Positions 1 to 499 of a stretch of 499 bases of DNA are shown piece after piece (within the stretch, counting starts at the first letter, position 1; the number at the start of each line of letters is the position of its first letter). Source of the DNA: a phage. The translations under genes were made by a program, and so were the position numbers. The stretch is from sequence record EF517071.1; one strand, 5' to 3'. The notes below the pieces were generated by a model. It ran no database searches. It had not been told where the DNA came from and worked only from the letters and a program-made list of their open reading frames with translations.

Positions 1-2
1 TT

Positions 3-239
3 CAGGCAATCTTAGAGAAAGATATGCTGCATCTATGTAAGCAGATCGGCTCAGGTGCGATTGTCCCCAATGGTAAACAGAAGGAAATGATTGTCCAGTT
101 CCTGACACACGGTATGGAAGGATTGATGACATTCGTAGTACGTACATCATTTCGTGAGGCCATTAAGGACATGCACGAAGAGTATGCAGATAAGGACTCT
201 TTCAAACAATCTCCTGCAATAGTACAAGAGGTGTTCTGA
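3..239 (+). CDS. Hypothetical small protein, 5'-partial or starting at ATG 24; ends at TGA 237-239
   Basis: The reading frame is open from the window edge (codons 3-23 read QAILEKD with no stop) through TGA at 237-239. The first in-window ATG at 24 gives 71 aa, but only a weak purine-rich stretch (GAGAAAG, 15-21) lies upstream, so the true start may be upstream of the window. Its stop overlaps the next gene's ATG (TGATG). Confidence 0.6.
   Translation, partial: QAILEKDMLHLCKQIGSGAIVPNGKQKEMIVQFLTHGMEGLMTFVVRTSFREAIKDMHEEYADKDSFKQSPAIVQEVF
226..233 (+). promoter_or_regulatory. Shine-Dalgarno-like ribosome binding site (AAGAGGTG) for the ORF starting at 239
   Basis: Purine-rich AAGAGGTG at 226-233, with the GAGG core 7 nt upstream of ATG 239; it lies within the 3' end of the upstream ORF. 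Confidence 0.6.
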
Positions 240-448
240 TGTCTGACTACCTGAAAGTGCTGCAAACAATCAAAAGTTGCCCTAAGACTTTCCAGTCCAA
301 CTATGTACGGAACAATGTGAGCCTCGTAGCGGAGGCCGCTTCCCGTGGTCACATCTCGTGTCTGACTACTAGTGGACGTAACGGTGGCGCTTGGGAAATC
401 ACTGCTTCCGGTACTCATTTTCTGAAACGAATGGGAGGATGTGTCTAA
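239..448 (+). CDS. Hypothetical small protein, 69 aa, complete (MSDYLKVLQTIKSCPKTF...KRMGGCV)
   Basis: ATG at 239-241 is preceded by the SD-like AAGAGGTG at correct spacing; the frame is uninterrupted to TAA at 446-448. The start overlaps the upstream stop (TGATG) and the stop overlaps the downstream start (TAATG). Amino-acid composition is ordinary, unlike the Ser/Thr/Cys-rich antisense frame. Confidence 0.75.
   Translation: MSDYLKVLQTIKSCPKTFQSNYVRNNVSLVAEAASRGHISCLTTSGRNGGAWEITASGTHFLKRMGGCV
433..439 (+). promoter_or_regulatory. Shine-Dalgarno-like ribosome binding site (GGGAGGA) for the ORF starting at 448
   Basis: GGGAGGA at 433-439, with GGAGG ending about 8 nt upstream of ATG 448; it lies within the last codons of the 69-aa ORF. 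Confidence 0.65.
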
Positions 449-499
449 TGTCTCGTGACCTTGTAACTATTCCACGCGATGTGTGGAACGATATACAGA
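448..499 (+). CDS. Hypothetical small protein, 3'-partial (N-terminus MSRDLVTIPRDVWNDIQ; continues beyond window)
   Basis: ATG at 448-450 overlaps the TAA stop of the upstream ORF (TAATG) and follows a strong SD-like GGGAGGA. The frame stays open for 17 codons to the window end. It is absent from the ORF track only because it is truncated by the window edge. Confidence 0.6.
   Translation, partial: MSRDLVTIPRDVWNDIQ

Follow-up and report, generated by a model that had tools for sequence, protein, structure and literature searches.

One-nucleotide stop/start overlaps in a phage T7 gene 5.5-5.7-5.9 segment and their possible role in coupled translation

Three class II genes of phage T7

The window, by which we mean the whole stretch of DNA analysed here (499 nucleotides of the phage sequence record EF517071.1), is a piece of the phage T7 genome that runs from gene 5.5 through gene 5.7 into gene 5.9. 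It aligns with positions 16912-17409 of T7 (V01146) at 98.0% nucleotide identity over 498 of its 499 nt. Nucleotide matches to the window were found in 189 phage records, and more than 100 other T7 records match it at near-identity. Three open reading frames follow one another on the plus strand, the first at 24..239 (frame 3, open to the left edge), the second at 239..448 (69 amino acids) and the third from 448 onwards (open to the right edge). The first belongs to the 3' part of gene 5.5 (1..239, plus strand), of which the window holds codons 22-99 and the TGA stop, read from base 3; this fragment matches the Pfam family PF11247 (Phage_T7_55) with an E value of 5e-52. The second is the complete gene 5.7 (239..448, plus strand), comprising 69 amino-acid codons and a stop, and its protein matches PHROG 1334 as well as PDB entry 5LGM, the NMR structure of gp5.7 (E=6e-41). 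The third is the 5' part of gene 5.9 (448..499, plus strand), represented by its first 17 codons, MSRDLVTIPRDVWNDIQ. Residues 1-17 of gp5.9 are identical in the window and in T7, and full-length T7 gp5.9 matches PDB 8B1R and 9GMB (RecBCD inhibitor). Taken over all window proteins, the PHROG matches were 1452, 1334 and 17900. The initial annotation had proposed three small co-directional phage proteins, and the DNA, Pfam and PDB matches identify them as gp5.5 (99 aa), gp5.7 (69 aa) and gp5.9 (52 aa).

The functions of these proteins have been described. gp5.5 is an H-NS inhibitor, and a note in V01146 records its binding to this host nucleoid protein. The small, winged-helix-like gp5.7 acts as a repressor of host RNA polymerase at T7 early promoters, its inhibition being directed mainly at the sigma-S holoenzyme (PMC5569994; bioRxiv 10.1101/262279), and gp5.9 blocks RecBCD (T7 record; PDB 8B1R, 9GMB). 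In comparison with the T7 5.5-5.7-5.9 cluster (V01146 16851-17517), gene order, gene lengths and reading frames are alike in the window, and both 1-nt overlaps between the genes as well as the second Shine-Dalgarno (SD) sequence are unchanged; the window differs from T7 by eleven GC-to-AT transitions. The gene boundaries, the 1-nt overlaps and a possible 5.5-5.7 fusion are already known, having stood in the T7 annotation since 1983 (Dunn and Studier 1983). As a discovery, therefore, the junctions matter little, with functions assigned for all three proteins and structures solved for two of them. What can be said is that a polycistronic cluster of small phage genes was correctly recognised from the sequence alone.

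The nearest T7 transcription signals flank the locus. These are the T7 RNA polymerase promoters phi4.7 (13915) and phi6.5 (18545), and none is annotated between them in V01146. Within the window, no T7 promoter was detected within three mismatches, and neither a sigma-70 promoter nor an intrinsic terminator was found on the plus strand. The minus strand gave one weak sigma-70-like match and one terminator-like match, both at chance level, and an Rfam scan of both strands of the window (E<=1) returned no RNA family. T7 transcripts are almost exclusively polycistronic and are processed by RNase III at sites including R4.7 and R6.5 (PMC6938266). The literature and the T7 record thus establish that genes 5.5, 5.7 and 5.9 are co-transcribed, in agreement with the single mRNA that had been proposed for the three proteins, no promoter or terminator lying between the genes. 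The same proposal had described the arrangement as typical of a phage early operon, and here it has to be corrected. The T7 early terminator TE is located at 7588 and Tphi at 24210; the locus, at 16.9-17.4 kb, lies far downstream of TE and outside class I, which host RNA polymerase transcribes between its promoters A1-A3 and TE. Genes 5.5, 5.7 and 5.9 are class II (middle) genes, the class that T7 RNA polymerase transcribes (PMC6938266), and not early genes.

Junction geometry and its conservation among relatives

At the first junction, the stop codon of gene 5.5 and the ATG of gene 5.7 have the A of TGATG (237-241, plus strand) in common, giving an overlap of 1 nt. The SD-like sequence of gene 5.7, AAGAGGTG, is found at 226-233 (plus strand) within the gp5.5 codons Gln-Glu-Val and is separated from the ATG at 239 by 5 nt. 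At the second junction, TAATG (446-450, plus strand), the last nucleotide of the gene 5.7 stop is likewise the first of gene 5.9, another 1-nt overlap that is annotated in V01146. Here the SD of gene 5.9, GGGAGGA (433-439, plus strand), is formed by the Met-Gly-Gly codons of the gp5.7 C terminus and lies 8 nt from the ATG at 448. The initial annotation had placed both junctions and both SD motifs exactly. It had also held that the ribosome-binding sites are embedded in the preceding genes, and this is borne out: each SD lies within the upstream gene, and the predicted pairing to the 3' end of 16S rRNA amounts to -11.8 kcal/mol at the 5.5/5.7 site and -12.3 kcal/mol at the 5.7/5.9 site; no other position in the window pairs as strongly, and the background is -4.6 +/- 3.0 kcal/mol.

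How unusual such a pair of junctions is depends on what is counted, as assessed with 5000 dinucleotide-preserving shuffles of the window. The T[AG]ATG pentamer occurs three times, compared with 1.9 occurrences expected, which is not unusual in itself (P(>=3)=0.28), and the third copy (124-128) is an out-of-frame accident within gene 5.5. At least two pentamers, each with an SD-like tetramer ahead of it, were obtained with P=0.02. Not one of the shuffles (0/5000) yielded two pentamers that had an SD and were flanked on both sides by 40 open codons. The earlier claim that two such junctions are unlikely to arise by chance consequently stands when the reading frames are counted and falls for the pentamer alone; the junction pair is not a product of chance, and the motif count by itself is insufficient to say so.

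Stop/start overlap is at the same time a routine feature of the T7 genome. Among 50 consecutive T7 junctions, 13 overlap (seven by 1 nt, one by 4 nt and five by longer stretches), and at a further seven the two genes are 0-5 nt apart.

We compared the locus in 15 relatives drawn from Teseptimavirus, Teetrevirus, Przondovirus, Kayfunavirus, Berlinvirus and Helsettvirus, with 63-98% nucleotide identity in gene 5.7. All 15 have the DNA polymerase gene 5 upstream and the exonuclease gene 6 downstream, and in all of them gene 5.7 is 210 nt long. The amino-acid identity of gp5.7 between the relatives and the window is 73-96%, far above the conservation of either neighbour. Substitutions relative to the window fall at codon positions 1/2/3 in the numbers 149/123/397 for gene 5.7 (15 relatives) and 65/61/146 for gene 5.5 (the six relatives of equal length). 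The 5.5/5.7 stop-start overlap is present in every relative, measuring 1 nt in ten and 4 nt in five. The junction after gene 5.7 overlaps in 13 of the 15 (1 nt in four relatives, 4 nt in nine); of the other two, one has stop and start adjacent and one has a single-base gap between them. This closeness of stop and start after gene 5.7 is kept despite different downstream genes: depending on the relative, the next gene is a 5.9 of the T7 type, a longer gene of the RecBCD-inhibitor type, an ORF unrelated to 5.9 or, going by the annotation, gene 6.

A GGAGG-type motif stands ahead of every start in the relatives. The SD downstream of gene 5.7 is encoded by the conserved C terminus of gp5.7, Met/His-Gly-Gly-Cys, in which the codon of Gly66 is GGA in all 16 sequences, whereas the five other invariant glycines each use 3-4 synonymous codons. 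The uniform use of GGA at Gly66 points directly to selection at the nucleotide level on the SD, beyond that on the protein. We regard this as a small quantitative addition to the known picture, namely that the SD after gene 5.7 is fixed at a synonymous site and that the overlap outlives replacement of the downstream gene.

No complete ORF in the window is longer than one on the minus strand (2..418; 138 aa), which is open in T7 too. The reading in which it is the real gene, the plus-strand junctions being incidental, deserves virtually no credence, and we rejected the candidate on its missing family match (neither Pfam nor PHROG), its disruption in relatives and its wrong codon-position pattern. 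Stops break its 5.7 part in eight of 15 relatives and its 5.5 part in two of six, and the substitutions peak at plus-strand third positions, which in the 5.7 part are minus-strand first positions. In addition, T7 genes all lie on one strand (T7 record; PMC6938266). The initial annotation had named conservation of this minus-strand frame, in place of the plus-strand frames, as the outcome that would speak against its operon; the comparison gave the opposite, with a third-position excess on the plus strand and a broken antisense frame.

Coupled translation, independent initiation and a possible fusion

In the mechanism that we propose, T7 RNA polymerase reads genes 5.5-5.7-5.9 from phi4.7 and upstream promoters as a polycistronic RNA, and RNase III cleaves this RNA at R4.7 and R6.5, the three genes having no promoter or terminator among them. 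Each downstream gene carries its own strong SD inside the last codons of the upstream gene. A ribosome that leaves the message at UGA or UAA would then find itself directly over the start site of the following gene and could re-initiate there, a process of termination-reinitiation coupling. Free 30S subunits probably also start directly at both sites, which is to be expected because the sites are unstructured and their SDs are strong.

Judged by their geometry, coupled translation is plausible at both junctions: the genes are co-directional and overlap by 1 nt, and the SD lies inside the upstream ORF. E. coli reporter tests showed coupling by termination-reinitiation, mostly SD-dependent, for four of five overlapping pairs (1 or 4 nt), and Huber et al. 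argued that coupling in E. coli is strict where the RNA folds locally and so keeps ribosomes from initiating de novo (PMC6728339). Both junctions in the window resemble the pairs of Huber et al. 2019 in that the genes are co-directional, overlap in TGATG or TAATG and carry the SD in the upstream ORF (PMC6728339). They differ from those pairs in that no occluding RNA structure is predicted at either 5.5/5.7 or 5.7/5.9. When minimum-free-energy folds of 81-nt junction segments were compared with shuffles, masking structure was no better than in the shuffled segments at the 5.5/5.7 junction (z 0.05), at the 5.7/5.9 junction (z -1.11) or at the 5.5/5.7 junction of T7 (z -0.45). Coupling at these sites is probably partial rather than obligatory.

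It could also be that ribosomes initiate independently at each strong and accessible SD and that the overlaps, arising as a side effect of compaction of a 40-kb phage genome, play no part in coupling. We consider this rather unlikely, although several observations agree with it. The SDs are strong (-11.8 and -12.3 kcal/mol in the window, and -16.3 kcal/mol at the first junction of T7) and are not buried in significant structure. Tight packing is general in T7, where at 20 of the 50 junctions the genes overlap or leave no more than 5 nt between them, and of the five E. coli pairs with overlaps one showed de novo initiation and no coupling (PMC6728339). The form of the overlap also varies among the relatives (1 nt, 4 nt, adjacent, 1-nt gap), which speaks against coupling, and two of the 15 have no overlap at the junction downstream of gene 5.7. 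On the other hand, the distance between stop and start stays at 0-4 nt in all relatives, despite the change in form and the replacement of the downstream gene, and such closeness exceeds what compaction alone demands. The four of five tested E. coli pairs that were coupled (PMC6728339) point in the same direction. Coupling and independent initiation are in any case not mutually exclusive. In our view, it is highly probable that the window is explained as a whole as a piece of T7 5.5-5.7-5.9, carried on a class II polycistronic RNA with embedded SDs, on which re-initiation is probably accompanied by direct initiation.

The TGATG at 237-241 is also annotated as the 'possible gene 5.5-5.7' -1 frameshift site. 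If it served primarily for recoding, some ribosomes would slip into the -1 frame shortly before gene 5.5 ends, yielding a gp5.5-5.7 fusion of 169 aa, with the predicted junction peptide EVFLMSDYLK in T7 and QSPAIVQEVFLMSDYLK in the window variant. Annotation and the literature offer this idea some backing: V01146 lists a two-piece CDS (16851-17359) under that name, phiYeO3-12 is annotated with a putative 5.5-5.7 fusion, and the fusion was attributed to a -1 frameshift in bioRxiv 10.1101/299180. Among T7 genes, 10B, a -1 frameshift product, and the 'possible' gene 0.6B are likewise annotated as two-piece CDSs. The last codons of gene 5.5 (CAA GAG GTG TTC TGA in the window) contain no X_XXY_YYZ heptamer, unlike T7 gene 10A/10B, whose slippery site is of the G_GUU_UUC type (PMC5009743), and no significant downstream structure is found at the 5.5/5.7 site. 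Gene 5.7 occupies the -1 frame relative to gene 5.5 in all 15 relatives, but this offset follows automatically from overlaps of 1 nt and 4 nt, so that its conservation is not independent evidence. Ahead of its ATG, gene 5.7 has a stop-free stretch of 15 codons in its own frame in the window (ATG 239) and of 5-26 codons in the relatives, with just 5 open codons in Rambo. PHROG 17900 (170 positions) covers both proteins, but it may merely gather annotated join products. A tblastn search with the hypothetical fusion matched 1280 phage records, and the presence of gp5.7 homologues in this many records also favours the plus-strand coding frames; in 30 of 30 sampled full-length matches the two parts lay in two frames, and none of these 30 was a natural in-frame 5.5-5.7 single ORF. 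The gp5.7 paper notes the 1-nt gene overlap and the possible frameshift fusion but, in conflict with bioRxiv 10.1101/299180, describes the fusion as not expressed (PMC5569994). We hold recoding as the primary role of TGATG to be quite improbable.

Returning to embedded SDs with re-initiation, it is tempting to speculate that the 3' end of gene 5.7 (ATG-GGA-GGN-TGY-NTN-stop/next start) is a conserved portable re-initiation cassette, an idea that we put forward as doubtful. If it were true, the gene after 5.7 would be obligatorily yoked to translation of gene 5.7 across Studiervirinae. A weaker variant concerns the T7 1.6/1.7 junction, which also has a 1-nt overlap and shares with the T7 5.5/5.7 junction the 15-mer GGAGGTGTTCTGATG. 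Both upstream proteins end in (K/R)EVF, and the flanking genes differ. The common 15-mer may go back to a shared ancestor, to convergence towards a good re-initiation site or to chance; in the weaker variant it would be a selected module for re-initiation or recoding.

GC-to-AT differences from T7

The window differs from T7 at 11 positions, base 499 among them, and every change is G-to-A or C-to-T. Eight of them fall in six codons in which the amino acid is changed, two are synonymous, and base 499 belongs to an incomplete codon. The changes in gp5.5 are V->I, T->I and R->Q, and those in gp5.7 are A10T, A27V and R60H, R60 being among the arginines implicated in non-specific DNA contact. At the gp5.7 sites the relatives hold the T7 state, and the window is therefore the derived form. 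Two of the changes convert the SD of gene 5.7 from GGGAGGTG, the sequence in T7 and most relatives, into AAGAGGTG, which takes the predicted duplex from -16.3 to -11.8 kcal/mol at a cost of about 4.5 kcal/mol. Neither this origin of AAGAGGTG as a mutated T7 GGGAGGTG nor the annotated -1 frameshift site had figured in the initial annotation.

As a rough indicator of nitrosoguanidine we looked for a purine 5' of each mutated G; six of the 11 sites have one, which is uninformative. The T7 lines of Hillis and Bull were reportedly grown in nitrosoguanidine. Three T7 isolates, K, P and P82 (AY264775, AY264777 and AY264778), differ from T7 in this region almost exclusively by GC-to-AT changes, at a density of 0.9-1.4%; none of the changes in the window is common to these isolates. 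Isolates K and P formed part of the experimental T7 phylogeny of Hillis et al. (PMC1409768), and nitrosoguanidine has been used to raise the mutation load of T7 (PMC8923235). No gp5.7 product on record was identical to that of the window, and the mutated junction had no exact match among the viral, genome and metagenome contigs searched. An independent T7 line, mutagenized in a similar way, is the most likely source of the window. Its apparent origin in a chemically mutagenized lineage rather than a natural isolate matters wherever the record is to be used as a natural sequence.

The region has also suffered in passaged T7. The annotation of isolate K gives genes 5.7 and 5.9 no more than a 'similar to', and in K115 genes 5.3-5.9 are no longer annotated, gene 5 ending at 354 and gene 6 starting at 737 (locus positions). 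Lost or damaged as they are in K and K115, these genes are dispensable in laboratory passage, and hence their expression level is not strongly selected in culture, a point that weighs against the proposed coupling. Dispensability in passage fits the excess of amino-acid changes observed in the window.

Mutation spectrum and its bearing on the gene 5.7 Shine-Dalgarno motif

The window differs from T7 at positions 45, 220, 226, 227, 266, 318, 361, 417, 418, 465 and 499; all 11 differences are GC-to-AT transitions, and the majority are amino-acid-changing. T7 isolates K, P and P82 (AY264775, AY264777, AY264778), which are mutagenized laboratory lines, have a matching spectrum but no individual change in common with the window. 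This pattern suggests that the window originated in an independent T7 lineage exposed to a chemical mutagen. None of the collections searched contained the source of the window.

Two of the differences form a tandem GG-to-AA change at 226-227 that converts the conserved gene 5.7 Shine-Dalgarno (SD) motif from GGGAGGTG to AAGAGGTG and, as a second effect, replaces R with Q in gp5.5. The change weakens the predicted pairing with the anti-SD sequence from -16.3 to -11.8 kcal/mol. The SD motif flagged at 226-233 in the initial annotation is thus a weakened mutant form of that in T7.

Constraint and recurrence at the stop/start junctions

At the downstream junction, we compared gp5.7 codons 66-67 (window 434-438) among the relatives L001-L016. 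The Gly66 codon is GGA in 16 of 16 sequences, and the remaining invariant Gly codons of gp5.7 vary freely; on this comparison, GGA at Gly66 is under synonymous-site constraint that preserves the SD for any gene downstream of 5.7. The stop/start pentamer by itself is not diagnostic. A third TGATG, at 124-128 within gene 5.5, has an AGGA motif a few bases 5' to it, but its ATG encodes a Met within gp5.5 and its TGA is out of frame, making it a built-in negative control.

The 15-mer GGAGGTGTTCTGATG is identical at the 5.5/5.7 and 1.6/1.7 junctions of T7 (V01146, 17131-17155 and 8147-8171, respectively), and in each case the protein encoded upstream has (K/R)EVF as its C terminus. The SD and stop/start requirement account for only approximately 10 of the 15 bases. 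Common descent or chance could explain the recurrence, as could a re-initiation cassette used at both junctions.

Antisense frame and gene content of passaged isolates

A 138-aa antisense ORF (minus strand, 2-418) is open in both the window and T7 and is interrupted by stops in approximately half of the relatives. Within its 5.7 part the codons are in register with the sense frame, so that the antisense frame stays open wherever TTA, CTA and TCA are absent from the sense frame.

The record of isolate K (AY264775, 1807-2174) lists genes 5.7 and 5.9 solely as 'similar to' features. In K115 (AY264776), a descendant of mutagenized isolate K, the 5.3-5.9 annotation is gone between gene 5 and gene 6 (354-737). 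The anti-host genes of this region appear dispensable under laboratory passage.
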